Assembly: GCF_963921235.1 (NCBI RefSeq)
Contig: NC_086108.1
Span: forward strand, 47,370,001-47,434,000
Reading direction: 5' to 3'
From: Mobula hypostoma
Lineage: Eukaryota
DNA: 64,000 bases
The position numbers and the translations under genes are program-made. The notes below the pieces were generated by a model. That model was not told the origin of the DNA. It made no database searches and saw only the letters and a program-made list of their open reading frames with translations. Shown here one piece after another: positions 10,236-58,492 of this stretch. Numbering within the stretch: the first letter of the stretch is position 1; each line of letters begins with the position of its first letter.

Positions 10236-12720
10236 ATCAAAGTCAAAGAAGAGTTTATTGTTGCATGCCCCAGTACATGTGTACACAGGTGCAGTGAAAA
10301 ACCTACTTGCAGCAACATCACAGGTGGTACATAACATCATATAATTAGCATTTTCAAGAAAACATAAATTATACGTGCATAACTTTTACAAGAAAACGCA
10401 ATTAGAACAAAAAAAATCCATTTTCATGCAAGGTGGTCAAGTGTTCAGAGTATTGCTAAACTGTAGTGATTAGGATTTGGCACTTGATTCTAGAACTGAA
10501 TGGTTGAAGAGAAGCAACTGGCGATGTGGGTCTTCAGATTTCTATACTTTCTTCCCAATGGTAGCTGCGAAAAGATGGCATGGCCTGGATGCAGGATATC
10601 TTTAATGGTAGATCTTGCCTTCCTGAGACAGCACCACCTGTAGATACTACCAATGGTGGGGAGTGATGTGCCTGAGATTTACTGGGCAAACTCTACTACT
10701 TTCTGTAGCTGCTTATGTTCCTATACATTCAAATCGCCATACCAGACCACGATGCTTCTAACAATACATTGTGGAAGTTTGTTGGAGGGTTCAATTACAA
10801 TCCAAACCGCCTTAACCTCTGAAAAAGGTAAAGATACCAGTGTGATTTTCTTATGATTACATCTATATGGTGGGCCCAGGACAGGTCATCCAATATGTTA
10901 GTGCCCAGGAATTTAATGCCACAGACCCTCTTCAATGCCAAACTCCAGAGTAGACTGGTGCAAGTTCGTCCTCCTTCCCCTTCCTGGAATCAACAGTCAC
11001 CTCCTTAGTTCTCCTGATGTTGAGTGAGAGGTGGTTTTCGTGGCATCACTCAACCAGGTTACCTGTCTCGTTTAAGTGAACTGACTCATTGTCACCTGTG
11101 ACTCATCTAACAACAGTAGTGTCATCATGAATAGGATGGAATGGCAGCTTAGCTACACTGTCATGTAAGGCTAATTGTGAAGAGTGGAGAGTGGAGAGTG
11201 GAGAAGGGAGAAGGGAGAGTGGAGAGAGGAGAGTGGAAAGTGGAGAAGGGAGAGTGGAAAGTGGAGAGTGGAGCAGGGAGAGTGGAGAGTGGAGAGTGGA
11301 GAATGGAGAGTGGAGAATGGAGAGTGGAGAAGGGAGAGTGGAGAGTGGAGAAGGGAGAGTGGAGAGTGGAGAGTGGAGAAGGGAGAGTGGAGAGTGGAGA
11401 GTGGAGAGTGGAGACGGGAGAGTGGAGAGTGGAGAGTGGAGAAGGGAGAGTGGAGAGTGGAGAAGGCAGAGTGGAGAAGGGAGAGTGGAGAGTGGAGAGT
11501 GGAGAAGGGAGAGTGGAGAGTGGAGAGTGGAGAGTGGAGACGGGAGAGTGGAGAGTGGAGAGTGGAGAAGAGAGAGTGGAGAGTGGAGAGTGGAGAAGGG
11601 AGAGTGGAGAGTGGAGAGTGGAGAATGGAGAAGGGAGAGTGGAGAGTGGAGAGTGGAGAGTGGAGAAGGGAGAGTGGAGAGTGGAGAGTGGAGAGTGGAG
11701 AAGGGAGAGTGGAGAGTGGAGAGTGGAGAATGGAGAAGGGAGAGTGGAGAGTGGAGAGTGGAGAGTGGAGAGTGGAGAAGGGAGAGTGGAGAGTGGAGAG
11801 TGGAGAGTGGAGAAGGGAGAGTGGAGAGTGGAGAGTGGAGAGTGGAGAAGGGAGACGGGAGAGTGGAGAAGGGAGAAGGGAGAGTGGAGAGTGGAGAAGG
11901 GAGAGTGGAGAGTGGAGAGTGGAGAGTGGAGAAGGGAGAGTGGAGAGTGGAGAGCGGAGAGTGGAGAAGGGAGAGTGGAGAGTGGAGAGTGGAGAGTGGA
12001 GAAGGGAGAGTGGAGAGTGGAGAGTGGAGAGTGGAGAGTGGAGAGTGCAGAAGGGAGAGTGGAGAGTGGAGAGTGGAGAGTGGAGAATAGAGAAGGGAGA
12101 GTGGAGAGTGGAGAGTGGAGAGTGGAGAAGGGAGAGTGGAGAATGGAGAGTGGAAAGGGAGAGTGGAGAGTGGAGAAGGGAGAGTGGAGAGTGGAGAGTG
12201 GAGAAGGGAGAGTGGAGAGTGGAGAGTGGAGAGTGGAGAATGGAGAAGGGAGAGTGGAGAGTGGAGAAGGGAGAAGGGAGAGTGGAGAGTGGAGAAGGGA
12301 GAGTGGAGAGTGGAGAATGGAGAAGGGAGAGTGGAGAGTGGAGAAGGGAGAAGGGAGAGTGGAGAGTGGAGAGTGGAGAAGGGAGAAGGGAGAGTGGAGA
12401 GTGGAGAGTGGAGAATGGAGAGTGGAGAGTGGAGTGGAGCGAAGCGCACAGATTTGAGGCACACCTGTACTGATGGGTCAATGAGGAGATGGTGTTGTTA
12501 CCAGTCGTCACTGACCGAAGTCTGCAATGAGGTAGTTGAGTATCTAATTGCAGAAGGAGGAATAGAGTCCCTGGGTCTTGAATTTTGACAGTGGGTTGAG
12601 ATGGAATGCTTTTGTTGAACATCAAGCTGTAGCCTATAAGTAACAGCCTGCCATCCAAGCTCCTGTCCAGAACAGAGTGAAGACCAGACAAAGCACTCCT
12701 TCTGTGGTGCTGATTGCAAA
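10236..12720 (-). mobile_element. Rex1/Babar LINE remnant hosting the heptamer satellite
   Basis: Tail tcaaagtcaaagaagagtttattg at 10238; RT motif DDTTVV at 11103-11130; on the other side of the satellite GNNTISSLT and tactc/tgcaattagatac resemble Rex RT. Confidence 0.75.
11181..12439 (+). repeat. Purine-rich 7-bp tandem repeat (GAGAGTG/GAGAAGG)n, about 180 units
   Basis: Directly visible; minor variants GAGAATG, GAGACGG, GAAAGTG; 7-bp phase maintained. Confidence 0.99.
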
Positions 12721-15699: not shown

Positions 15700-18226
15700 G
15701 ATGATGTTTCAGTCCCTTCCCACTTACAACTGCAACACTTCACATGCTCTCGATCTCCTCAACAACTTTCACTTCTCTGGCCCTGACTGCCTCATCTTCA
15801 CTATGGATGTCCGGTCCCTATACACTACTATCCACCATCAAGAAGGCTATAAAGCTCTCCGCTTCATTCTCGCCCACAGAACTGACCAGTTCCCCTCCAT
15901 CACCACACTCCTCCATCTTGTGGACGTGAAACAGTCCACGTTCCAAGCTTTCCCGGGTAATGCTCCCCAACTCTTTCTGCACGACATTGATGACTGCATC
16001 TGTGCTGCTTCATGCGCTCATGCTGTGCTCGTCAATTTCGCCAACTTTCCCTCCAACTTTCACCCTGCCCTTAAATTCACTTGGTCCATTTCTGACACAT
16101 CTCGCCCCTTTCTGGATCTCTCTGTCTTCATCTCTGGAAACATTTCGACTGATATCTTTTATAAAACTGCCAACTCCACAGCTGTCTTGACTAGACCACT
16201 TCCCACCTTATCTCCTATAGAAATCCTATTCCCTTTTCTCAGTTCCTTCTTCCCCACTGCATCTGTTCCCAGGATGAGTCTTTCTTTTCCAGAACATCAG
16301 AGATGGCCTCCTTCTTCAAAGAACGGGGTTTCCTCTTTTCGACCTTTGATACTGCCCTCACCCGCATCTCTTTCATTTCCCAGACGTCCGTCCTCACCCA
16401 TCATCCCGCCATCTTAACAGGGATAGAGTTCCTCTTGTCCTCACCTACCTCCCCCTTGAGCCTCTGCATCCAACACATCGTTCTCTACAATATCCATTAC
16501 TTCCAGCTGGATCCTACCACAAAACACATCTTAACCTCCCCCCAACTCTCCACTTTCCACAGGGAATATTCTGTCTATGATCCCCTGTCCACTTGTCCCT
16601 CCCCACTAATCTCTCCTCTTGCAAGTCGAAGTGCCACACCTGCCCATTCACCTCCTCCCTCACCACCACTCAGGGCTCCAAACAGTCCTTCCAGATGAGG
16701 AAACACTTCACCTGTGAATTTGTTGGTGCCGTCTACTGTAAGCGGAGCTCCCGATGCGGTCTCCTTTACATTGGTGAGAGCACTTTGTTGAGCACCTTCG
16801 CCCATTCACAAAAAGCAGAATTTCCCAGTGGCCAACCACTTTAATTCCAATCCCCATCCCCACATCAGTCCAAGGCCTCCTTTACTGCCATGATGAGACC
16901 ACTCTCATGTTGGAGGAACAACACCTCATGTTCCATCTGGTAGCCTCCAACCTGCTGGCACGAACACCGATTTCACTAAGTTCCAGTAATTTTTTGCCCT
17001 TCCCCTTCCCTCTTCTTCCATTGCCCATTCTGCCTCTGCTCTTAGCTCTCATCTACTCACCTGCTTACCACCTCTCTTGCAGCCTCTCCTCCTTCCCTTT
17101 CTCCCGTGGTCCACTCTCCTCTCCTATCAGATTCCTTCTTTCCCAATACTTTCTCTTTTCCACTATCACCTCCCAGCTTCTCGCATGATCCCCTTCCCCA
17201 CCCACCTAACTTCACCTATCACCTTCGAGCTGTACCCCTTCCCCTCACCTCCCCCACCTTCTTATTCTCGCTTCCCCACCCCCTCCTTCCTTTCCAGTCC
17301 TGATGAAAGGTATTGGCCTGCAATGTCAGCTGTTTATTTATTCTCATAGATGCTGCCTGAACTGTTGAGTTCCTCCATCATTGTCAAGTTCAAATTTAAT
17401 TATCATTTAACCATATATGAATACAGCCAAATAAAACAACGCTTCTCCAGGGCTAAAGTGCAAAACATAGTACCAACTATCCTACACAGCACAAGGTACA
17501 TGTACGATTACATTAAACATACAGTCGCACACAAAAAAATATATACTGTATATAGTCCAAGAGCCTGAGTGACATGCCCTGTAAGTTGAAGGTGCATCAG
17601 TATTATCAGCAAGACCAAGCAGTTCTCAGCAGTCTGTAGATGATCATATGCACACATGCATGCAGTCCACCTTGCCTTCCACTGAGCAAACATTGGCGAG
17701 CAGCACCAACCCAGCATGGACACCACGCGACACCACCTCTGGCATCTCTCCTCTTAGACTGCTGCAGCAGGCAAGCTCATAGCTTGAGGCTTAATCCTTG
17801 CTCCAACCAAGGCCACACAGCTCTGCCGCTGCCTGTCTCACCAATAAATAAGGGAAGCAGACTTGTGGTATTCTCCATTACCAATGCTCAACAGGGTCTT
17901 GCGCAATCACAAGAGAAACATCCAAGACAATCACTTGCTGTTAGACTGCACACCGCCTTCATGCACCAACTCCAATGCCTTCCTGCAGCAGGCAGTAACA
18001 CAGTCTACCTCGAGCCCAGCTACTCCAGCTCCTCCACCAGAGGTAGACCTGCAGTACTTGAAGACCTTAATGTCCAGCATGCCTTGCGACCGTTAAAAAA
18101 AAAGACACTTAAAAAAGACATAAACACATTTTGTTGACCCGAGAAGCTGTTGCATCCGAACATGCTGCCATCTTACATTTTGTGTGTGTCGCTCTGGATT
18201 TCCAGCATCTGCAGAATCTTGTGTTT
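15700..18226 (+). mobile_element. Penelope-like element, degenerate; pLTR split by the 17383-18174 insertion
   Basis: ORF 15686-16417 IFTMDVRSLYT..HDIDDCI..PFLDL; ORF 16593-16844 CHTCPF..VYCKR..LYIGE; decayed hammerhead 17295-17332; pLTR resumes at 18176 (cattttgtgtgtgtcgctctggatttccagcatctgcag). Confidence 0.9.
17383..18174 (-). mobile_element. Non-autonomous Rex1-like retroelement
   Basis: Minus strand starts aagatggcagcatg (AAGATGGC-type 5' end) and ends in a Rex-like tail (rc of gtcaagttcaaatttaattatcatt); no RT ORF; cleanly interrupts the pLTR. Confidence 0.5.
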
Positions 18227-18944
18227 ATGAAGATTCTGCAGATGCTGGAAATCCAGAGCGACCTTGTTGCTTACCTACACCGCACTTCCTCTGTAGGCTT
18301 TACACTTTATTGTACACACCTCGATGCACCGTGTAAAGAACCGATCTGTAAGAACCGTTTGCAAGGTCAGCTTTTCACTGCATCTCGGTATGCGAGAAAG
18401 TAATAAATCAATTCCAATTCTAATAAAGTTCAAGATCTTCAGTTCTGAGTTTCACACAGCAGTGGTGTGTGGTTTCCGTGCCCCGTCTCAGAGCATAAGT
18501 TTCAGGACTGTGCGTTCTATTGCCAGTCTTGCATCTGCTTCTATTTGGCATTGAAGACGGGATCTCTGCTTCCAGCTCTTCCTGCAGCAGGAGAACATCA
18601 CTGCCCTGAGGGAAAGGATGAGGAAGAAAACTCCCAGTAGATCAGGGGGAGTAGGTGGTTGAAGAGCAGCATCTGTCAGAGGAACATTCTTTGTGTATGG
18701 CCCACAGAGATCCATTAGGCAAACAGCCTCTGTGAAGACATGAGCTCAGTCCCTTAATGCCTGTGCTTTGGGGGAGCCCACAAGGCAGGCAGATGTGCAT
18801 GGTGTTCTGCCAGCTCCTGTAGGCTGAAGCCTTCCCTCCATGAGTGAAGAGTTTTGGATAGGATCCCTGATTTGGCAGTGAGCAGCAAACTGTGAGATGC
18901 TGCAGAGGTCCACAGCAGCAGCCTGGAGTGATCATGAATTTAGG

Positions 18945-24065: not shown

Positions 24066-25695
24066 CAATGGTGCTAGAAAGTTTGTGAACCCTGTAGAAT
24101 TTTCTTTTTCTGCATAAATCTGATCAGATCTTCGCGTATCCTAAAACTAGATAAAGATAACCCAATTAAATAAATTACACAAAAACATTATACTTGTTAA
24201 TTTATTTACTAAGAACAATTATCCAATATTACATGTATTTATTGGAAAAAGTGTGTGAGTCTCTGGGGTATTGCCTTCAACAAAAGCTATTTGTAGCCAT
24301 GTGTTCCAATCAATGAGATGAGATTGGAGGTGTGGGTTGTACAGGTGCCCTGCTCTATAAAAAAGACGTACAAGATTGGGTTACTGATAGAGTCTGCTCT
24401 TCTCAAGAAAGGTATCTTCATGTGCACCATGCCTCGATCAAAACAAAGTTCAGAGGACCCTAGAAGAAGAGTTGTAGAGATGCATGAAGCTGGAAAAGGC
24501 TACAAAAGCATTTCAAAAGACCTAAGTGTTCATCAGCCCACAGTAACAGAAATTGTCTACAAATGGAGGAAACTTAGTACCGTTGCTACTCTCCCTAGGA
24601 GTGGGCATCCTGCAAAGATCACACCAAGAGCACAACGTGCAATGCAAAACGAGGTGAAAAAGAACCCAAGGGTAACAGCAAAAGACCTGCAGAAATCTCT
24701 TGAACTTGCTGAAGTCTCTGTTCATGTATCCACTATAAGAAAACCACTGAACAAGAATGGTGTTCGTGGAAGGTCACCACAGAGGAAACCACTGCTCTCC
24801 AAAGAAAAACATTGCTGTAAGTCTCAAGTTAGCAAAAAACACCTGGACATTCCACAATGCTTTTGGGACATGGTTCTATGGACAGATGAGATAAAAGTTG
24901 AACTTTGTGGCAGAAATACACATTGCTATGTTTGGAAGAAAAAGCGTTTTTTTTGTGTGTTATTTATCTAATTGAATTATCTTTATCTAGACACCGACAA
25001 AAAAACCTCGTCCCAACTGTGAAGCATGGTGGAAGGAGCATCATGGTTTGAAGCTGTTTTGCCGCCTCAGGGCCTGGACAGCTTGCAATCGTTGAGGGAA
25101 CAATTAATTCAAAATTGTATCAAGACATTTTACAGGAGAAAGTCAGCATAGCGGTCCATCACCTGAAGCTTAATAGAAGTTGGGAAATGCAGCAAGACAA
25201 TGATCCGAAAGACAAGAGTAAATCAACAACAGAATGGTTTAAAAAGAAGAAAATTCATGTTTGGGAATGGCTGAGTCAAAGTCCTGACCTTCATCCTATA
25301 GAAATGTCTTGGAAGGACCTGAAGGAAGCAGCTCATGCAAAGAAATCCACCAATATCCCAGAGTTGAAGCAGTTTTGTAAGGAGGAAAGGCCTAAAGTTC
25401 CATCAAGCCGATGATCAACAATTATCTGAACATTCAGATGAAGTTATTGCTGTGCAAGGGGGTCACACCAGTTACTGAAAGCAAAGGTTCACATACTTTT
25501 TTCCAACAAATACATGTAATATTGGATCTTCTTTCTCAATAAATAAATGAACAAGTATAATTTTTTTGTGTTATTTATTTAATTGGGGTCTTTTCATCTA
25601 GTTTTAGGACTTATGTAAAGATCTGATCACATTTTAGGTCATATTTATGCAGAAATAGAGACATTTCTACAGGGTTCGCAAACTTCCTACCACTA
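24066..25695 (+). mobile_element. Tc1/mariner DNA transposon (DD34E) with about 200-bp TIRs, non-functional
   Basis: TA at 24064-65 and 25696-97; TIR caatggtgctagaaagtttgtgaaccctgtagaa mirrored by ttctacagggttcgcaaacttcctaccacta; inverted similarity extends about 200 bp. Confidence 0.96.
24429..25478 (+). pseudogene. Tc1 transposase pseudogene (Frog Prince-like by sequence resemblance)
   Basis: MPRSKQ..GKGYKSISK..LPRSGHPAKITPRAQR paired-like domain; WTDE, QQDND and SPDLHPIE with 34 residues between the second D and E; in-frame stops and a 44-bp insertion. Confidence 0.93.
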
Positions 25696-28009: not shown

Positions 28010-29000
28010 ATTTAGAACAGTACAGCACAGTACAGGCCTTTCACCCAATGATGTTGTGCCAAACATATAACCTATTCTAGGATCAAACTAACCCTTCCCT
28101 TCGACATAGCGGTCCATTTTTCTTTCATCCATGTTCCTATCTAAGAGTTTTTTAAATGTCACTAATGTATTTAACTCTGCCACCACATCTGTCAGCCCAT
28201 TCCACACATCTAGCACAATCTGCATAAAAAAACACTACCTCTGACATCCCTGTATACTTTTCTCCAATCTATGTCCTCTGGTATTATCCATCGCCACACT
28301 GGGATAAAGGCGTTGGCTGTCCACTTCATCTGTGTCTTTTATCATCTTATACCCCTCTAGCAAGCAGCCTCTCATCCTCCTTTGCTCCAAAGAGAAAAGC
28401 CTTAGCTCGTTCAACATATCCTCATATGACATGCACTCTAATCCAGGCAGCATACTCTGCACCCCCATATCTTTTCTTAATGAGATGATCAGAACTGAAC
28501 ACAATACTCCAAGCAACACACACACACAATGCTGGAGGAACTCAGCAGGCCAGGCAGCATCTACAGACTGTTCACTCTTTTCCATTGATGCTGAATTCCT
28601 CCAGCATTTTGTGTGTGTGTTGCTCTGGATTTCCAGCATCTGCAGATTTTCTCGTGTTTGTGACAATACTCCAAGTGTGGTCTAACCAGCGTTTTATAGA
28701 GCTGCAACATTACCTCAATTCCTGGACTAAGTAGGGCCAGCACCACATCAAACTGCACAGGGACTCTGAAGGATCTATGTGCTTGAATGCTGAGGTCCCT
28801 CTATTCCTTCATGCTGTCAAGAATCCTGCCACTAGACTTGTACTCTGCCCTCACGTTTCACCGTCCAGTGTGTATCACTTCACACTTTCTGTCTCAAAGA
28901 ATCCTTTCCAATAGTTTGCCCACCGCTGATGTGAGATTCACTAGTCTATGATTCCCAGGATCATCCACAATTACCTTTCATGAACAAAGGAAGCATTTGC
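28010..29000 (-). mobile_element. CR1 LINE 3' remnant
   Basis: ORF 28561-28758 VMLQLYKTLVRPHLEYC; ORF 28235-28666 LRLFSLEQRRMRG; tail tagaacagtacagcacagtacaggcc. Confidence 0.88.
28514..28662. mobile_element. Fold-back PLE pLTR-only mini-insertion lacking the hammerhead
   Basis: 13-bp TSD acaatactccaag at 28501-28513 and 28663-28675; inverted arms (aatgctggaggaa / ttcctccagcatt); tail on the right arm. Confidence 0.88.
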
Positions 29001-32108: not shown

Positions 32109-33541
32109 GAGGGGTGACTTCATAAAAGTTTATAAAAGGGGTATGGATCAGGTGGGTGGTTATAGCCTTTTCCCCAGGGCTGCTGCATCCAAATCTACAG
32201 GGCACAGATACAAGATAAGAGGAGAAAGAATTAAATGAGACCTGACAAGTAACTTCATTACACAGGAAGTATTGAATACCTGGAATGAGCTCCCAGAGGA
32301 AGTGGTTGAGGTGGGTACATGTAAGAGACTTTTGGATGGGAATGCGGAGGAGAGCAGCTTGGAGGCCAATGGCCAAATGCAAGTAATTGGGAACTCACAG
32401 GGAGATACCGTGGTCTACCCAAAAGGCATGTTCTGTGCTGTATTACTGTGACAATGGATCTAATGCTGAAGTTTAGGTTCCAAACAATAAAATTGGTTTG
32501 AATTTGAGGCAAAAGAAAGAAAATATAAAGAGATGGAAGTGGGTTAAATAATATTAAATCTCTTGTATGCTACACAATCCTTCCCTTTGAATTCAACAGA
32601 CAATAGAATTGTGCCCATACTACTGTCTCTGCTTGAAGTTAATGATTGTTTGGTATTTTATTCACGGGGTTAATGACATAGTGCTGCTACCTTCCTGCTT
32701 TGCACCAGTGCAGTCCTTTTCATTGAGTTGCTGATTCTCACCATGAAAACACAAACATTATTGTCTATCATCATGTATGCTGGGGTAGGGCCCGGGCCGG
32801 ATTAAGTTAGTGCGGGGCCTGTAGCATGTGTTATAAAGGGGCCCTAAATTTTAGAAGTGCACATAAGTACTAAAACATAAATTATTTACTTGCATAGCAA
32901 TTCAATTTTTTCATTTGCTGTACAGCCAGATAATACAACAGATGCCTGATACTTCAGCAATAGTATTACTTACATGTAGGTATCAATTTCAAATGTCAAA
33001 AGTAACAAAACTCAATTTAAGAGTTACATTTTCTAGATTTAGCATGAGAAAATTTGTTGATGATACTGGAAATGTCTATTTCATGCAGAAGTTCAGGTTC
33101 AATGCTCATTAGAGTGAGATTGTTCAATCTGTTTTGACCCATGGTGATCCTTAGTTCATTTTTAATCCTTTTCAGTTTTGAAAATGAGTGTTCTCCACTG
33201 CAGTTGGTAACCATGAGTGACAAATAGGTGTGCAAGGCATTTTCTACATTTGGAAAACATGACTCCAAAGAATTGTCAGTTATCAAACGGTACCACTGTA
33301 ACTCTACAAGGTCTTGTTTGGTGCCAATTTGAGAAACAAGATCAGTTTTCAACAGTTCAGTAAACTGCACAAATTCTTCATCAAGACTTTCTTCCAGATC
33401 TTCCAGATATGATCTAATAAGGTTTGATGACCTCTTTACGATCTCTTCAGGTGTAAACGACCGTGACTGATGAAGGAATCCAAAAACACCATTCACCTTT
33501 AGATAAGCTTTCTGCCTTTTTGACAGGGCAGAAAGCAAGCT

Positions 33542-34179
33542 CAAACACAAAATACTCTGCAGATGCTGGGGTCAAAGCAACACTCACAACATGCTGGAGG
33601 GAACTCAGCAGGTCGGGCAGCATCCGTGGAAACGATCAGTCAACGTTTCGGGCCGGAACCCTTCGTCAGGACTGAAGAGGGAAGGGGCAGAGGCCCTATA
33701 AAGAAGGTGGGGGGAGGGTGGGAAGGAGAAGGCTGGTAGGTTCCAGGTGAAAAACCAGTAAGGGGAAAAATAAAGGGGTGGGGAGGGGAAGCCAGGAGGT
33801 GATAGGCAGGAAAGGTGAAGAAGGAATAGGGGAAAACACAATGGGTAGTAGAAGGAGGCAGAACCATGAGGGAGGTGATAGGCAGCTGGGGGAGGGGGGC
33901 AGATTGAAATAGGGATAGGGGAAGGGAGGGGGAGGGAATTACCGGAAGTTGGAGAATTCTATGTTCATACCAAGGGGCTGGAGACTACCCAGATGGTATA
34001 TTAGGTGTTGCTCCTCCAACCTGTGTTTGGCCTCATCATGGCAGTAGAGGAGGCCATGTATGGACATATCCGAATGGGAATGTGAAGTAGAGTTGAAGTG
34101 GGTGGCAACTGGGAGATCCTGTCTGTTGCGGTGGACGGAGAGGAGGTGCTCGACGAAGCGGTCCCCCAGTCTGTTACAA
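33542..34179 (-). mobile_element. Young PLE 3' fragment inserted into the hAT ORF
   Basis: TSD aaagcaa(g/a)ct at 33532-33541 and 34180-34189; GIY-YIG C-terminal half, UTR and pLTR with tail. Confidence 0.92.
33636..33675 (-). ncRNA. Minimal type-I hammerhead ribozyme (GUU site)
   Basis: rc: tcagtc CTGACGA a gggt-tccg-gccc GAAAC GTT gactga; 6-bp stem I, 4-bp stem II, intact core. Confidence 0.8.
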
Positions 34180-36470: not shown

Positions 36471-37268
36471 AGGCTGCTGTCCAATGTTCCAGAACCCCTT
36501 AAGTATGCAGTCTGGGCTCTATCAAAATGGTGGGGTGTTTAACTGTGACTTTGAGCCAGGCCTAAGCAGTAATGGATTTCAGAATACTGGACAGAGCTCT
36601 CAGAATACTGATCCAAAACAGAGTTTGCCCAGCCAAGGGAAACGGTTTTAATTTTTTAAACAAGTTTCATGTGAGCATTCCTCCTTCCCTGACAGTGAGC
36701 GCTCAACCACACATCTTATGCTGTGGTCTGCTTCCCTGGATCTGTTGCACAACTTTGACTGCTTCTAACTGACCCAAGCTATTTTTGGACAGGAAGAAGC
36801 AAGCATTACATCATTACCGTCAGCCTTATCTGCTTGCTGCGGTTCCCTGCCAAAGAAATGTCCTAACAGAGGGGTAAAAACCGATCCTATGACTTACTTA
36901 CAGGGAAGAGCTGAAGCCATACATTGGAATATTGCAAATACAGTACATTCTATTTTGTCTCAAAACATCCTTACACACAAGTCAGCAAACTTAAGCAGAA
37001 AAAAACTGGAAACAATTGGCAGACCAGGCAGTACCTGCGGAAAAAGTAACAGTGTAAACATTTCAGGTCTGAAACCTTTTATCAGAAAAGGGAAAATAAG
37101 AAAACAGTTTACAGTAATTTGCATCGTGGAGAGAGGGATGGAAAGATGGATATCACAAATTGAATATGTCTGATAAGGCGAGGATAGGGTTGCCAATGTG
37201 ATTGAGGAGTCACACTCCCAACACGCTGGAGGAGCTCAGCAGGTCGGGCAGCATCCGTGGAAACGATG

Positions 37269-37304
37269 AGTTGACGTTTCAGGCCAGGACCCTTCGTCAG
37301 GACT
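37269..37304 (-). ncRNA. Hammerhead ribozyme, core intact, first stem-I pair mismatched
   Basis: rc: agtc CTGACGA a gggt-cctg-gcct GAAAC GTC aact. Confidence 0.65.
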
Positions 37305-37326
37305 GTAGAGGGAAGGGGCCCTCTAC

Positions 37327-37362
37327 AGTCCTGACGAAGGGTCCCAGCCCGAAACGTCGACT
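37327..37362 (+). ncRNA. Minimal type-I hammerhead ribozyme, intact
   Basis: agtc CTGACGA a gggt-ccca-gccc GAAAC GTC gact; predicted cleavage after 37358. Confidence 0.85.
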
Positions 37363-39944
37363 CATCGTTTCCACGGATGCTGCCTGACCTGCTGAGTTCC
37401 TCCAGCGTGTTGGGAGTGTTGCTTTGACCCCAGCATCTGCAGAGTATTTTGTGTTTATGATTGAGGAGTCATCTGGCCAATGGATCAATGAGGCCATTAG
37501 AAGGAGAAAAAAAGACAAACGTACAGGTAAAGCTGTAAAAAAAAAAGCATCAGAGCTGAGAATGAAGCTTGAGATCAAAATGCTGGAAGTGCCCCGAAGA
37601 TCTGGCAGTGTCTGTGTAGAAGAAAATACTGTTACCATCACAGATGATGAACTTAGAGCAGAGCTAGCTCTGACCCTAGCCAAAACCTTAAATGGTTGAA
37701 CTTGATAGAGACTCCCAAGGGCTGCAATGTGCTCACACACTAGATGAGGGGCTGCTCTTTAATCTTAAGCTGGATCTCATTGTAACATTGCAGGAGGTCA
37801 CGGATATACTGGCCACAGAGAACATGGGATGGAGGATTAAAATGATAGCCACTGGAAAGGTCCGGGTCAGAATACAGGTGCTCTGCAAAGTGGTCACCCA
37901 CTCTCACTTTGATCAGTTCAATGTAGAGGAGACCACATTGTGAACACTGACACAATTTAGTATGATGGACAGGCGGGATTGCAAGTGAGTGAACAACTGA
38001 TCTCAGAAGGACAATTCAGATGCCCAGGTGGCCGTGAGGGACAAAGTAGAAGATCAGGTGTTGCATTCCCACCTTGAAAAGGGAAATGGCTGGTGGAGGT
38101 AGGACCAGGGAAAATGAAAACAGAAAATGCTGAAAAACACTCAGCAGTATCTGTGGAAATAAGATTGTGTTAAATCCCTTTTTTTTTGTTTCTTGGCATA
38201 TTTTTAATTGTTATGAAAACCAAAATAGTGTTTTTTGAGACTAATGCAATTTTATTTTTGCTCCAGTCGTGGGAGTTGGGAACTGTGTGAGTGTCCAAAT
38301 CCCACATGAGCACTTGTGGCCTTTTTGACTAAAGCAAGAATTAATTCAAAGTTCTGAGCAATGATGCAATTAATTACTATTTGTTAGAGCATGAGTCTTG
38401 GCCAATTTTATAATTAAACTCAGCAGTGATGGAATACCACAGGAATAAATAGTGTCCTCACAGGATCTGCTCAGATCTAGAGATGCCAGTGTTATTTATG
38501 ACTGCCACTAGGATCCAATTCTTTAAAGATTCTGCGGTCAGAAAAGGGATTGTGGGTCAAAGGCTGAGGATGATAGGTTGGAAGGTGACCTTCGGACCAT
38601 GGGAGCGACTTGGTATCCTGGAGGGAACGCTCATGGTCTGTCACTCCAGGTGTAGGCTCACGCAGTGGAACTTACGTGGTGGTTCAGCTTTGTGTGGGAT
38701 GAGCAGTGCAGACGTAGGAGATCTGACCCAACTGAATGATTGGTATTTATGCTCCACAGTAACAGCCCATTGTCCACTTCATCTATTCTACCAGTAAAAT
38801 CCATTGGTCCCTCTCACCTAACCAACTTCTCTTTCAGTGCATCTATTCCCCTCAATAATGCAAGAGGGAAATTTGGAACTTGCAGTAGAATCTGGGAGGT
38901 GATAGGTAATGACAACAAAGGGGAACAGATGAGTAAATCCAATAGGAAGAGAAGGTGAGGCATGAAAACAAATAAGAGTGGTGGGAACAGGAGAGGGAAA
39001 GGGTCCACTGGATGGAGTGTGTTGGTGATGGGCGTATAGAGTAGATGGAGGAGGAGAAAGGAACAGCATGATGAGGGTCCAGAGATTGGGGCGGGGGGGC
39101 TGTGTAGAACAGGAGGAAAGGGAAAAGGGTCGGAGAGGGAACCGGTTTTATTCAATGGTCATGCCGTCTGGCCAGTGGGTTACATTGTGTTTTATCTGTA
39201 ATACACTATGTGGTATTACAATTGTTGGACAAACAGCAGCTGCTGCCACACGTTGGACAACAAAAATACATTTGTCTCATGTAGTTAGGTGAAGACTATT
39301 GTGCTGTGGACTGAAGAAGTGCGTTACCACACCATGCCTTCCTGAGCACTGAGGTTGTAACTACTAGTGTTACTGCCATACAGGAAAAATTGTACCAGCC
39401 AGTCTCTCACATCTGACAGCAACTGCAAAGGAGAGTATATCAGTGCAGCCCAGGATGACGCTAATTAGTCTGCACAATCAGAAAAGTGCATTTTAGCAAG
39501 ATAGAAACTACTCTAAAGATAGAAAAATAAAAAGAATTCCAAATAACAAGACAAAAAGATATTTCAGTGCATGTGACTATTCACTTTGAAGTTAATGGGA
39601 TAAAAGTTAAAGTGTTTTCAACTTTGATCAAAGGAACTGTATGGTGGGTGGAAATGTAGCAGCCACCCCTATTTAACAGGAGTAACTACAGATGATTTTC
39701 TTTACATCAAAGACTTCAGAAATTATAACAATTAAAATTTCCCTCATTATGTTCTATATAGTGGGTAAAATCATACTAACTCAGGCCAACAACTTGGTTG
39801 GTGGAAGAGCCTGTTTCTGTGCTGTAGAACTCTATGACTCCAGCTACTGAATTGTTTGTAATAGTAATGTTCAGTCAATAGTCTTGGGAGAAGCTAAGAA
39901 GGATAATCTATACTAGAGTAATAGAGTAATAGAGAGAGAGAGAG

Positions 39945-45756: not shown

Positions 45757-47585
45757 AAAAATAGAAACATAGAAAACCTGCAGCACAATATAAGCCCTTC
45801 GGCCCACAAAGCTGTGCCGAACATGTCCTGACCTTAGAAATTATCTAGGGTTACCCATAGCCCTCTATTTTTCTGAGGTACATGTACTTGTCCAGAAGTC
45901 TCTGAAAAGACTCTATCGACTCCGCCTCCACCACCATCGCTGGCAGCCCATTCCACACACTCACCACTCTCTGTGTAAAAAAACTTACGCCTGACACCTC
46001 TTTTGTACCTACTTCCAAGCACCTTAAAACTGTGCCCTGTCGTGCTAGCCATTTCAGCCCTGGGATAAAGCCTCTGACTATCCACACGATCAATGCCTCT
46101 CATTATTTTATACACCTCTGTCAGGTCAACTCTCATCCTCCGTCGCTCCAAGGAAAAAAGGCCAAGTTCACTCAGCTTGTTCTCATAAGGCATGCTCCCC
46201 AATCCAGGCAACATCCTTGTAAATTCTGCACCCTTTCTATGGTTTCCACGTCCTTCTTGTAGTGAGGCAACCAGAATTGAGCACAGTACTCCAAGTGGGG
46301 TCTGACCAGGGTCCTATATAGCTGCAACATTACCTCTCGGCTCCTAAACTCAATCCCACAATTGATGAAGGCCAATACACCGTATGCTTTCTTAACTACA
46401 GAGTCAAATTGCACAGCAGCTTTGAGTGTTTTATGGACTCGGACCCCAAGATCCCTCTGATCCCCCACACTGTCAAGATTCGTACCATTAATACTATATT
46501 CTGCCATCATACTTGTGGTGGCGCGTGGCCAAGTGGTTAAGGCGTTCGTCTAGTGATCTGAAGGTCGCTAGTTCAAGCCTCAGCTCAGGCAATGTGTTGT
46601 GTCCTTGAGCAAGGCACTTAACCACACATTGCTCTGCGACGACACCGGTGCCAAGCTGTATCAGCCCTAGTGCCCTTCCCTTGGACAACATCGGTGGCGT
46701 GGAGAGGGGAGACTTGCAGCATGGGCAACTGCCGGTCTTCCATACAACCTTGCCCAGGCCTGCGCCCTGGAAACCTTCCAAGGCGCAAATCCATGGTCTC
46801 AGAAGACTAACGGATGCCTATATATATGTCATCATATTTAACCTACCAAAATGAACCACCTCACACTTATCTGGGTTGATCTCCATCTGCCACTTCTCGG
46901 CCCAGTTTTGCATTCTATCAATGTCCCACTGTAACCTCTGACAGCCCTCCACACTATCCACAACACCCCCAACCTTTGTGTCATCAGCAAATTTATTAAC
47001 CCATCCCTCCACTTCCTCATCCAGGTCATTTATAAACATCATGAAGAGTAGGGGTCCCAGAACAGAACCCTCAGGCACACCGCTGGTGACCAACCTCCAT
47101 GCAGGATATGGCCCATCTACAACCACCCTTTGCCTTCTGGGGCAAGCCAGTTCTGGATCCACAAAGCAATGTCCCCTTGGATCCCATACCTCCTTACTTT
47201 CTCAATAAGCCTTGCATGGGATACCCTGTCAAATGTCTTGATGAAATCCATATACACTACATCTACTGCTCTACCTTCATCAATGTGTTTAGTCACATCC
47301 TCAAAAAATTCAGTCAGGCTGGTAAGGTATGACCTGCCTTTGACAAAGCCATGCTGACTATTCCTAATCATATTATGCCTCTCTAAATGTTCATAAATCT
47401 TGCCTCTCAGGATCTTCTCCATCAACTTACCAACCACTGAAGTAAGACTCACTGGTCTATAATTTCCTGGGCTATCTCTACTCTCTTTCTTGAACAAGGT
47501 AACAACATCCGCAACCCTCCAATCCTCCGGAACTTCTGCTGTCCCCATTGATAATGCAAAGATCATCACGAGAGGCTCAGCAATC
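45757..47585 (-). mobile_element. Younger 5'-truncated CR1 nested in the older CR1
   Basis: Tail tagaaacatagaaaacc; ORFs 47117-47569 (PGNYRPVSLTSVVGKLME), 46818-47162 ([20 protein letters not shown]), 46172-46510; host CR1 resumes at 47586 tagccctcctgatt. Confidence 0.92.
46515..46826 (+). mobile_element. tRNA-derived SINE, family A (RTE-like tail)
   Basis: A box tggccaagtgg, B box gttcaagcc, CORE-like tgtgtccttgagcaaggcacttaacc; imperfect TSD tg(c/t)catcata(c/t)tt; second copy at 58493-58801. Confidence 0.88.
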
Positions 47586-54620: not shown

Positions 54621-55756
54621 AGGGGTATGTCCAAAGGATTCTTCTCTTTAGAAAATTCATCAATAAGACAAACATAAGATATCATGGCAACACCTCCACC
54701 TCCTTCCATGTATTGGCACCTGTTGGTTTCAGTCACAAAGGGATTGGTCTGTTGAGATCTGCCATAGATCCAGTGGGTCAAATGGGCCTATCTGAATTGT
54801 AATTACTGCTCTTCCCTAATTACTCGGTGGATAAATCAGAGCCCAATGTGAATCTATGTCGGACAGATGAAAATCCAAAATCTGTTTTCCTAATCTGTCC
54901 TTTTGGCCATTGCTGGTCTCTCAAAATTTAACCCCAGTTTCTTGAAGCGTCATGGTCTCCTCATTACATAATCCCTTCTTCAACATAACTGATCAGACTG
55001 CAGAGTTACAGCACAGAATTTCAGAGTGCAGAAGTAAATTCATTGTACCCACTCAAACGCTTTTTAAAAGCTACCAATTAGTCACAGAGTTCCTGCTTCT
55101 CCTTTGTTCAGCAAAGTCATTATTTTACACCTATACTCCAATATCTTCTTAAGCCACCCGATATAAGACCACAAGACAAAGGAGCAGAGTTAGGCCATTC
55201 GGCCCATTGAGCATACTTCATCATTCCACCATGGCTGATTTATTATCCCATTCATCCTCATTCTCCCGTCTTCTTTCCATAACCTTTGATGCCCTGACTA
55301 ATCAAGAACCGATCAAACTCTGCTTTAAATATACTCAGTAACATGGCATCCACAGCTCCCTGTGGCAATGAATTTCACAGATTCACTACCCTCTGGCAAA
55401 AGAATTCTTCCTCATCTCTGTTCCAGTCTGAGGCTCTGACCTCTGATCTTAGACTGAGCCACTATTGGAAACATCCTCCCGACATCTGCTCTATCCGGAC
55501 CTATTAATATTCAATAGGTTTCAATGGGATCCCCCCTCATTCTTCTGAATTCCAGCAGGTACAAGCCTGAAATCAACAAACACGCCTCATTTGTTAACCC
55601 TTTCATTCCCAGAATCACTCTCAAGAATTTCCTCTGGACCCTCTCCTATGCCACCACATCTTTTCTAAGATAAAGGGCCCAAAACCGCTCACAATACTCC
55701 AAGTGCAGACTGACCTTATAAAGCCTCAGCATCACATCCTTGCTCTTATATTCTAG

Positions 55757-57221
55757 GCAACACTCACAGTACGCTGGAGGAACTCAGCAGGTTGGGCAGC
55801 ATCAGTGGAGACGATGAGTCGACGTTTCGGGCCGGAACCCTTCGACAGGACTGAAGAATGAAGGGGGGGAAGGATCTGAAGAATGCTTGTAGGTTTGACT
55901 GAAAGACCAGTAATTTGAAAGACAAAGGGGTGGGGGAGGGGAAGCATCGACGTCATAGGCAGGAAAACAATGGGTAGTAGAAGGAGGCGGAACCATGAGG
56001 GCGGTTAGAGGCAGCTGGGGGAGGGGGCAGAGTGAAATAGGGATAGAGGAAGGGAGGGAGAGGGAATTACCTGAAGTTGGAGAATTCTATGTTCATACCA
56101 AGGGGCTGGAGACTACCTAGACGGTATATGAGGTGTTGCTCCTCCAATCTGAGTTTAGCCTCATCATGGCAGTAGAGGAGGCTATGTATGGACATATCTG
56201 AATGGGAATGGGAAGCAGAGTTAAAGTGGGTGGCTACCGGGAGATCCTGTCTGTTGTGGCGGACGGAGTGGAGGTGCTTGACGAAGCGGTCCCCCAATCT
56301 ACGTCGGGTTTCACCGATGTAGAGGAGGCCGCACCGGGAGCACCGGATGCAATAGATGACCCCAACAGACTCACAAGTGAAGTGTTGCCTCACCTGGAAG
56401 GGCTGTTTGGGGTCCTGAATGGTGGCAAGAGAGGAGGTGTAGGGACTGGCGTAGCACTTACGCTTACAGGGATAAGTGCTGGGTGGGAGATCCGTGGGGA
56501 TGGACGTGCGGATAAGGGAGTTGCGGAGGGACCGATCTCTGCGGAAAGCGGAGAGGGGTGGAGAGGGAAAGATGTGCTTTGTGGTGGGGTCCTGTTGAAT
56601 GTGGCGGAAGTTGTGGAGGATAATGTGCTGGATCCGGAGGCTGGTGGGGTGGTAGGTGAGGACAAGGGGAACTCTGTCCCTGTTGTGGTGGCGGGAGGAT
56701 GGGGTGAGGGCCGAAGTGCGGGAAATGGAGGAGATGCGGGTGAGGGCATCATTGATGACGGTAGAAGGGAAACCACGATCCTTAAAGAAAGAGGACATTT
56801 GAGATGTCCTGGAACGGAAAACCTCATCCTCGGAGCAGATGTGGCGGAGACGGAGGAACTAGGAATAGGGAATGGCATTTTTGCATGTGGCGGGGTGGGA
56901 AAAGGTATAGTCGAGGTAGTTATGAGAGTCAGTGGGCTTGTAGAAGATGTCAGTGGACAGTCTGTCTCCAGAGATGGAGACCGAGACATCGAGAAAGGGG
57001 AGAGAAGTGTCCAAGATAGACCAAGTGAATTTGAGTGCTGGGTGGAAGTTTGAAGTAAAGTCGATGGAATTGACAAGCTCAGCATGGGTGCAGGAAGCAG
57101 CACCAATGTAGTCGTCAATGTACCAAAGGAAAAGTTGGGGAGCAGTACCAGAATAGGTTTGGAGCACAGACTGTTCCACATAACCAACGAAGAGACAGGC
57201 GTAGCTGGGTCCCATGCGAGT
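55757..57221 (-). mobile_element. Young 5'-truncated PLE inserted in CR1
   Basis: 13-bp TSD tcttatattctag at 55744-55756 and 57222-57234; hammerhead 55817-55852 with CTGTCGA core substitution. Confidence 0.96.
56067..57215 (-). pseudogene. PLE RT (C-terminal half) plus GIY-YIG ORF with a single in-frame TAG
   Basis: ORFs 56859-57215 (MGPSYACLF..WYIDDYIG..FYKPTD) and 56067-56798 (VIYCIRCSRCGLLYIGET) are in the same frame, split by TAG at 56859-56861 where the family has Q. Confidence 0.92.
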
Positions 57222-58492
57222 TCTTATATTCTAGTCCTCTTGAAATAATTGCTAACATTGCATTTGCCTTGCATACCACCAACTCAACCTGCAAGTCAAT
57301 CATTAAGGAATCCAGCACAAGTACTGCTAAGTCCCTTTGCACCTCTGCTCTTTGAATTTTCTCTCCATTTAGAAAATAGTCTACGCCTTTATTCCCTCTA
57401 CCGAAGTGCATGACCATACAATTCCCTACACTATATTCCATCTGCCACTTCTTTGCTCATTCTCCCAATCTGTCCAAGTCCTTCTGCAAATTCCTTGCTT
57501 CCTCATCACTACTTGCCCATCCACCTATCTTCCTGTTGTCCGCAAACTCGGCGACAAAGCTATCAGTTTCGTCATCCCAGTCATTCACATATATAACATG
57601 AAAGGAAGCAGGCCCAACATCAACCCCTGCAAAACACCATGAGTCACCAGCAGCCAACCAGAAAAGGCTCCCTTTATTCCCACCCTTTGCCTCCTGCCAG
57701 TCAGCTAATCTCCTATCCATGCTACTATCTTTCCTGTAATATCACGGGCTCTTATCTTGCTGAGCAACCTCACATGCAGCACTTTGTCACAGGACTTCTG
57801 AAAATCCAAGTAAGCAGCATCCACTGACTCTCCTTTGTTTATCCTGCCTGTTATTTGCTCAGAGAATTCCAACAGATTTGTCAGGGAATATCATCCCTTA
57901 AGAAAACCATGCTGACTTTGGCCTATTTTATCATGTACCTCGAAGTACCCCTAAACCACATCCATAATAATGGATTCCAGCAACTTTCCAACCACTAAAG
58001 TCAGGCTAATTAGCCCATAATTTCTTTTCCTCTGCCTCACTTCCTTCATAAAGAATGGAGTGACATTTGCAACTTTCCTGTACTCCAGAACCATTCCAGA
58101 ATCTGGTTATTCTTGAAAGATCTTTACTAATATCTCAATAATCTCTTCAGCTACCTCTTTCAGAACCTTGGGGGGGCACACCATCTGGTCTAGGTGATGT
58201 ATCTACCTTCAGACCTTTCATCTTCCCAAGTACCTTCTCCTTAGTAATAGCAACAACATTCACTTCTGCCTCTGATGCTCTCAAAATTTTGACATCGTGC
58301 TTGCGTCTTCCGTCATGAAGGCTGCTGTAAAATACATTAATTTCATTCACCATTTCATTGTCTCCTATTGTTACCTCTCCAGCATCATTTTCTAGTGGTC
58401 CAATGTCCACTCTCACCTCACTTTTACTCTGTATATATATGAAAATTTTTTTGATATCCTCCTTGATATTATTGGATTATTTATCTTCATAT

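Follow-up and report, generated by a model that had tools for sequence, protein, structure and literature searches.

The insertion unit of EN+ Penelope-like elements (PLEs) is described as carrying an adjacent inverted, 5'-truncated copy and a one-sided tail of 30-40 bp (Craig et al. 2021, PMC8557442). PLEs with an inverted pLTR, a 31-bp tail and TSDs of 9-10 bp were reported by Arkhipova et al. (2013, PMC3846280), who proposed self-priming, and inverted terminal repeats with a 34-bp repeat are described for Drosophila Penelope (Schostak et al. 2008, PMC2377424). The process that generates the inverted copies and the one-sided tail is reported to be not yet defined (PMC8557442). In vitro, both target strands are cut and extended by the Anolis Poseidon PLE (PAc), and its reverse transcription begins internally, at a pair of sites that mark the limits of the tail (Frangieh et al. 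2024, PMC11167929). The PAc protein is predicted to be a dimer, and hammerhead cleavage is reported as not needed for insertion (PMC11167929). Minimal hammerheads (min-HHRs) of metazoan PLEs do not cleave singly and cleave at a low level as dimers, and dimerisation requires a partner on the same strand (Cervera and de la Pena 2014, PMC4209133); a review concurs on the dimer behaviour (PMC6765202). Dual min-HHRs on opposite strands, 100-700 bp apart, have already been noted (PMC4209133).

The window analyzed here is the whole 64,000-nt stretch of Mobula hypostoma contig NC_086108.1 in which the fold-back insertion at 37199..37471 lies, and its features are collected in Table 1. A perfect 14-mer TSD bounds a 245-bp insert (37213-37457) that consists of two inverted copies of the PLE pLTR, as the initial annotation had described. 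Its account of the hairpin was also borne out. The arms (37212-37312 and 37319-37419) are 101 nt each and 94% complementary around a 6-nt loop, and the 38-nt tail follows the right arm only. Five of the six arm mismatches are of the CpG type (37345, 37346, 37350, 37359 and 37385) and one is T/C (37397), and the insert is proposed to have decayed since insertion, mostly via CpG loss. The loop has the annotated length; it is not a neutral spacer but antisense family sequence belonging to the tail-less arm. The antisense and sense pieces have one base in common, and the outer ends of the insert show 1 and 3 nt of microhomology to the element. The hairpin RNA has a predicted folding energy of -229 kcal/mol (z = -27), and none of 200 shuffled sequences was as stable.

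Table 1. Features of the fold-back insertion (positions in the window)
Feature	Position	Strand	Remarks
Left TSD copy	37199..37212	+	14 bp; 1-nt microhomology at the site-2 end, where the last base also fits the element
Tail-less inverted PLE 3'-end piece, 107 bp	37213..37319	-	Starts at site 2 (upstream end point); includes the 6-nt loop and the junction base
Minimal type-I hammerhead, damaged	37269..37304	-	Stem-I mismatch at 37272, G10.1-U11.1 wobble at 37281; predicted cut after 37273
Head-to-head junction	37313..37319	.	6-nt loop of the tail-less arm plus one shared base; single copy in genome
Sense PLE 3'-end piece, 139 bp	37319..37457	+	Ends at site 1 (downstream end point); family alignment
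Minimal type-I hammerhead, core intact	37327..37362	+	Stems I and II of 4 bp each, a bulged A and, where helix III would be, a palindromic ACGU; predicted cut after 37358
PLE tail, 38 nt	37420..37457	+	Stretch between both end points; ordinary family sequence
Right TSD copy	37458..37471	+	14 bp; first 3 bases also continue the element

An inverted 5'-truncated copy, a one-sided tail within 30-40 nt and a TSD are all present, as in the PLE inverted insertion unit. The locus resembles the canonical EN+ PLE units described in PMC8557442, PMC3846280 and PMC2377424 in its head-to-head inverted copies, one-sided tail, variable TSD and pLTR-region hammerhead. It differs from them in that both copies are cut to ~110-140 bp, no ORF lies between them and the product is a near-perfect hairpin. 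The architecture is already known; the locus is genuine but an unremarkable scar of a familiar type. The 245-base hairpin is the shortest class of a common Neptune/Nematis-type PLE insertion product.

The 139-bp right arm with its tail is 93.5% identical to a longer copy in the window (33543-33681), and many other window fragments are related. A 631-bp query returned 5,512 first-look candidates in the genome, 40 of which were scored and had 92-95% identity with the self-match excluded. A 16-nt hammerhead-core pattern gave 32,394 genome matches, which span several subfamilies, against 3 for the reversed control. The 38-nt tail is ordinary family sequence across 30 aligned copies. A 591-aa open frame in parent copy L201 matches RVT_1 (E = 1.3e-7) and GIY-YIG (E = 1.8e-4, just below the curated cut-off), and GIY-YIG was also detected in a window copy (E = 9.7e-5). 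The parent family has the single-ORF layout of a reverse transcriptase followed by a C-terminal GIY-YIG endonuclease. EN+ PLEs are characterized by a DKG motif and a CCHH finger in which two cysteines lie between GIY and YIG, and a CX2-5CxxC zinc finger in the linker is described for Neptune and Nematis and as absent from Penelope and Poseidon (PMC8557442). In the translations, DKG occurs as ADKGG ahead of the RT core, CxxC lies between IY and YIG with histidines downstream, and the RT-EN linker of several copies bears a CX3CxxC zinc finger. By the motif criteria of PMC8557442, these predicted proteins identify the parent as an autonomous Neptune- or Nematis-type EN+ PLE.

Head-to-head hammerhead pairs were counted genome-wide by spacer length. 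There were 54 pairs with spacers of 0-30 nt, 72 with 31-60 nt, 27 with 200-230 nt and 39 with 400-430 nt, and the reversed controls gave 0. The spacer classes are a continuum, with the short hairpins (126 pairs at spacers of up to 60 nt) at its short end. In the 0-30 nt class 50 of 54 pairs were examined, together with 30 of the 31-60 nt pairs, selected from 50 of these 72 and largely belonging to the young subfamily. In the longer classes the examination covered 24 of 27 pairs at 200-230 nt, 15 of 39 at 400-430 nt and an additional locus whose spacer is ~465 nt.

Copies of the family end either at the tail end (site 1) or ~38 nt upstream (site 2). The two sites were used 20:20 in 40 copies picked only by their position on one contig. 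By our reading, ~13 of these copies adjoin an inverted pLTR arm and the remainder, which have no such arm, are split 13:13, with one locus complex. A window copy without an inverted arm (55757-57221) ends at site 2 and has a 13-bp TSD. TSDs of 11-18 bp (mode 14) were found at 31 of 50 short hairpins and at 6 of 598 swapped-flank controls, using a search with position windows that is blind to same-site pairs; pairing was counted with a search that had no such windows. The TSDs of inverted insertions are mostly 13-16 bp. Among distinct TSD-bounded loci in the 0-30 spacer class, the unrestricted search found a site 1 end paired with a site 2 end in 26 of 30. By eye, three of the other four are the same mixed pairing masked by an internal deletion or duplication, and one is irregular; the one nominal site 2 + site 2 locus among the four is explained by a deletion. 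Mixed pairing was found in 16/18 TSD-bounded loci with spacers of 31-60 nt, 15/17 with 200-230 nt and 11/12 with 400-460 nt. There were no TSD-bounded same-site pairs in these longer classes, the exceptions being irregular. The clear TSD-bounded mixed-site insertions total 68, and none is clearly same-site. Classification by alignment alone assigned 90 of 119 loci as mixed and 3 as same-site (two of the 3 were inspected), with 26 unclassifiable. TSD-bounded inverted insertions therefore carry one end of each kind. Independent choice between two sites used 20:20 would give about half same-site pairs.

The accounts of the tail in PMC8557442, PMC3846280 and PMC2377424 describe it as optional or often one-sided and give no counts of such a pairing rule. 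No count of the rule or of spacer-dependent arm concordance was found in the non-subscription literature searched.

The outer ends and inner junctions were compared at 17 loci. Microhomology between the target and the continuation of the element averaged 1.5 and 1.4 nt at the two outer ends versus 0.38 and 0.45 nt in shuffles, and 0 of 20,000 shuffles reached the observed values. At 17 young TSD-bounded loci, the longer 5' extension belongs to the tail-less arm in 8, to the tail arm in 7 and to neither in 2. The inner junctions of the same loci have a 1-2 nt overlap in 5 cases, are blunt in 2 and contain extra bases in 10. A loop that comes from either arm (8:7) favors two priming events over a single snap-back.

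Arm concordance was scored at three polymorphic family sites in the 71 of 119 loci that passed a young-subfamily filter. The arms of short hairpins agree at these sites in 34/35, 45/45 and 43/43 cases (0.50, 0.77 and 0.56 expected), and long-spacer arms agree in 14/19, 17/20 and 20/21. Disagreement at one or more diagnostic sites occurred in 1 of 45 short and 8 of 21 long insertions (Fisher p = 2.6e-4). Non-CpG divergence between arms is alike across the four spacer classes (3.1, 4.9, 3.9 and 4.5%), which argues against lasting homogenization of the short hairpins. The pattern is tentatively read as two copies made from a single RNA, where the longer arms may also have undergone a change of template or piecemeal conversion at a later time. 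Overall arm identity was uninformative about a shared template in long insertions, since partners ranked mid-field among 50 arms. The arm pair at L097, with 84% identity, was considered as a combination of two subfamilies and rejected; the low value is caused by a 22-nt deletion.

The locus at 37199..37471 is a one-off, 5'-truncated head-to-head PLE insertion, likely formed by double target priming. The endonuclease would nick both target strands ~14 bp apart, and each target 3' end would prime reverse transcription on element RNA through 1-4 nt of pairing. Site 1, at the tail end, would be the start point for one of these 3' ends, and site 2, 38 nt upstream, the start point for the other. Synthesis of each cDNA would terminate early, at 139 and 107 nt in this case, and the cDNA 3' ends would be joined head to head with little or no homology before the second strands are filled in. 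Both arms probably came from one template, because they share two variants found together nowhere else. In LINE-1 twin priming, reportedly described by Ostertag and Kazazian in 2001, cDNA synthesis is likewise primed from the two target ends, with head-to-head joining of the products, but the second primer copies an upstream part, which gives an inversion without duplication. In the present case both primers would copy the same stretch, giving a hairpin. The initial annotation had offered a minimal product of PLE double priming as one of two readings, and the two end points, the mixed pairing, the loop on the tail-less arm and the end microhomology support it.

Double target priming fits the PAc data, because PAc cuts and extends both strands from two start sites that delimit the tail (PMC11167929). 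The present family is like PAc in having two end points ~38 nt apart that are used in pairs and also without an inverted arm, and in that hammerhead cleavage is dispensable for insertion (PMC11167929). It belongs to a different clade, and the main text on PAc is silent on inverted insertions (PMC11167929). PAc initiation is reported to occur without target homology, whereas 1-4 nt of microhomology is enriched at both ends here (PMC11167929). The priming steps are deduced from the finished insertions, and the clade studied in vitro is a different one (Poseidon). Several findings count against double priming. Microhomology at the inner junction is rare, so annealing alone leaves the joining step unexplained. 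A strict one-RNA model does not predict the disagreement between arms in 8 of the 21 long inverted insertions. By alignment alone, 3/119 loci are same-site and 26/119 unclassifiable. The 10 extended loci contained no full-length or tandem parent copy, of the kind whose tandem RNA might have supplied the two arms from its two pLTRs, and the lack of a full-length parent weighs against this reading as well.

An unlikely alternative is that a single cDNA snaps back and copies itself, stopping ~38 nt short of its start, or that an antisense template allows self-priming, a proposal made for Penelope elements of rotifers. Such copying would produce both the private variants common to the two arms here and the concordance at diagnostic sites in 44 of 45 short-spacer loci, and self-priming has been proposed for palindromic PLE junctions (PMC3846280). 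A fold-back from tail-primed cDNA must place the loop on the tail arm, but the loop is on the tail-less arm at this locus and in 8 of 17 loci. Site 2 also ends ordinary copies without an inverted arm (13/40) and shows primer-type microhomology. These arguments concern the tail-primed version of the fold-back and not the antisense-template version.

It is very improbable that two independent RNAs or RNPs primed the two target ends and that the arms of short-spacer insertions were later made alike by intrastrand conversion in the hairpin. This proposal is a variant of double priming and not of the hairpin-family idea. The excess of arm disagreement in long over short insertions is what it would give. 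It also predicts that about half of the pairs are same-site, as opposed to the 68 mixed TSD-bounded insertions with none clearly same-site. The arms of short hairpins differ at non-CpG sites as much as those of long ones, with no lasting homogenization visible, and long arms remain concordant at one of the sites in 20/21 cases (0.56 expected).

The other reading in the initial annotation was a non-autonomous, ribozyme-bearing hairpin family, retrozyme- or MITE-like, mobilized as a unit in trans. In its favor, the genome has at least 126 similar head-to-head pairs with short spacers, TSD-bounded short pairs cluster at ~230-275 bp, cargo can be mobilized in trans by PLE cis-sequences (PMC3846280) and retrozymes are described as non-autonomous PLE derivatives (bioRxiv 10.64898/2026.07.22.740005). 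The size cluster follows from the search pattern and the two fixed ends. A genome-wide search for the junction had been named in that annotation as the test that could refute a self-propagating family, and in the 3.48-Gb genome the exact 30-nt junction has a single match. The two arms have a pair of variants in common, spaced 54 nt apart, and their combination matches only these two arms genome-wide in an exact-pattern search with CpG degeneracy, which a decayed source copy could escape. Among the 80 of 126 short-spacer loci that were examined, no case of a junction copied to a different site was seen. Only three pairs of these loci have near-identical spacers: L049 and L050 are the same insertion with the same flanks, the second pair has its tails on opposite sides, and the third differs in diagnostic alleles and arm ends. 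Each examined short hairpin has a junction of its own, and short hairpins arise anew each time. The hairpin family is largely refuted for this locus and is barely credible as its origin. The insert is like non-LTR retrozymes in being non-coding and PLE-derived with a type-I hammerhead; those are described as tandem same-strand repeats, in contrast to the inverted single-copy unit here (bioRxiv 10.64898/2026.07.22.740005). Identity as a non-LTR retrozyme, which calls for tandem same-strand units with at least two consecutive hammerheads, was rejected on the two motifs on opposite strands and the lack of a tandem array at the locus.

The motifs of both arms share the hammerhead core, an extra A after position 9, a 4-bp stem II, an ACGU palindrome without helix III and a 4-bp stem I. 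The plus-strand motif has the features of a PLE minimal hammerhead, namely a CUGANGA...GAAA core, an NUH site, helices I and II, G10.1-C11.1 and a palindromic 15.2-16.2. The minus-strand motif departs from these at G10.1-C11.1 and at one stem-I pair. The annotation of one hammerhead per strand holds for the intact plus copy; the minus copy has two defects, not one, since besides the mismatch at 37272 it has a wobble at 37281 where the plus copy has G-C. A scan of the whole window with Rfam at the gathering score gave no match, which is no argument against hammerheads because Rfam does not capture the minimal motif. The core, the extra base between 9 and 10.1, the palindromic 15.2-16.2 without helix III and the short helix I are as described for metazoan PLE min-HHRs (PMC4209133). 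Unlike the min-HHR pairs described there, the two motifs are 22 bp apart with a stem II of 4 bp, and the minus copy lacks G10.1-C11.1 and one stem-I pair (PMC4209133).

Equilibrium folding, a model that leaves kinetics and proteins aside, was used to predict the state of the ribozymes in read-through RNA. On the transcript of either strand, the sense hammerhead sits in the 3' arm and emerges after its own antisense. The pairing probability of stem II was ~1e-14 (plus) and ~1e-20 (minus) at every prefix length tested, and that of stem I was <1e-31 at all of them. Compared with the -229 kcal/mol of the hairpin, the active-like fold reaches -8.5 kcal/mol on the plus strand and -3.4 kcal/mol on the minus strand. 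The hammerheads are predicted to be locked shut or dead, unable to fold in read-through RNA, because dimers are needed, the motifs are on opposite strands and so cannot dimerize within one RNA, and each emerges after its own antisense. A co-transcriptional race between cleavage and dsRNA formation, as had been envisaged, is unsupported: the antisense precedes the hammerhead, stem pairing is ~1e-14 or less and a same-strand partner is needed (PMC4209133). A second fold-back in the window (28514-28662; 13-bp TSD, older subfamily) has no hammerhead in either arm, so the motif is not required for the fold-back product. The hammerheads would be passengers of the pLTR.

Contigs of related organisms were compared with the locus. 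From either flank, contigs of organism B reach into the insert, over 36701-37236 (14 differences) and 37433-37900 (11 differences), so organism B carries the insertion. The contigs of organism C end short of the site. In organisms D, E and F, contigs align to the left flank at ~6-9% difference; the match breaks off at 37212/37213, beyond which the contigs extend a further 170-576 letters. This supports the insert boundaries. The insertion is apparently absent from D, E and F, the empty site being deduced from where the match ends. The window is repeat-rich, and 40 of its 76 long stop-to-stop frames, compared with Pfam, contained transposon domains and low-complexity sequence only and no host exon, a search that would miss short exons. 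One presumed RNA run gave low-depth contigs on both flanks (depth 2.6-5.3) that may represent DNA or pre-mRNA; at the hairpin, reads from other copies overwhelm its own signal. If the locus were transcribed, a dsRNA of ~100 bp would form, and hairpins of this kind are potential sources of ~100-bp dsRNA.

The locus itself is of little weight, being a decayed retroelement scar among many, and the outcome guards against the false discovery of a hairpin family with ribozymes on both strands. PLE specialists gain a useful by-product in the strict end-pairing rule, with many natural products in one genome. Clear predictions for the PAc reaction in vitro (PMC11167929) follow from the one-of-each rule and from the dependence of shared template variants on spacer length. 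It is also possible, though somewhat less likely than not, that the scars record the geometry of the PLE integration complex, in which an asymmetric RT-endonuclease dimer would hold one RNA, start the cDNA of one target strand at the tail end and that of the other strand 38 nt upstream, and copy the same stretch twice. Such a dimer would account for one tail per insertion, one template for short hairpins and a possible template switch in longer runs. A junction census would then map PLE integration in vivo and settle the origin of the inverted-repeat-plus-tail structure.

Agreement between the two arms of head-to-head Penelope-like element (PLE) loci at the three polymorphic family sites declines as the spacer separating their hammerhead motifs lengthens. 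Discordance was found at 1 of 45 short-spacer loci (0-60 nt; L001, L032-L080 and L148-L177) and at 8 of 21 long-spacer loci (200-230 and 400-460 nt; L123-L147 and L178-L192). Background arm divergence shows no such dependence on spacer length. L011 and L098 are one and the same genomic place. L049 and L050 represent a single insertion that occurs twice with identical flanks, once on a long and once on a short contig, and reflect either a duplication or a haplotype. In the spacers of L060, L063 and L048, 17-30 nt have no counterpart in the part of the element consensus that lies upstream of the motif.

The window contains further PLE-derived sequences along with other repeats. The second fold-back joins one arm ending at site 2, the end point ~38 nt upstream of the element's tail end, to one arm that carries the tail, and the hammerhead is gone from both. 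The truncated parent-family copy terminates at site 2 without a tail or an inverted arm; its coding sequence, which contains one stop, covers the RT thumb, the linker finger and GIY-YIG. The polarity of the tail-to-tail palindrome is opposite to that of the head-to-head fold-backs, and no TSD was found around it. The left flank of the 245-bp insertion (window 37000-37110) is an old repeat relic matched by many unrelated contigs at 80% likeness; compared by eye, its sequence resembles an antisense PLE end. The 7-bp tandem repeat yields long open frames and spurious Pfam matches.

Repeats and further PLE insertions in the window
Feature	Window position	Size	Details
Purine-rich 7-bp tandem repeat	11181-12434	1.25 kb	179 copies
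Tail-to-tail palindrome of two PLE tails	18188-18262	75 bp	
Tc1/Sleeping Beauty-type transposase relic	24297-25414		
Second fold-back PLE insertion	28501-28675		13-bp TSD; older subfamily
hAT transposase relic	33020-33571		
LINE-type RT relic	46821-47584		
5'-truncated parent-family copy	55744-57234	1.46 kb	13-bp TSD

Locally re-copied hammerhead fragments lie inside the junctions of L036 and L038. A second same-strand motif is located 38 nt downstream at L038, and this pair could form a cis dimer. At L197 (2850-3265), ~8 tandem 54-bp units directly follow a site-2 arm. The core in each unit is hammerhead-like and belongs to an older PLE subfamily, with the GAAA box altered in most, and the array is retrozyme-like in its same-strand tandem layout.
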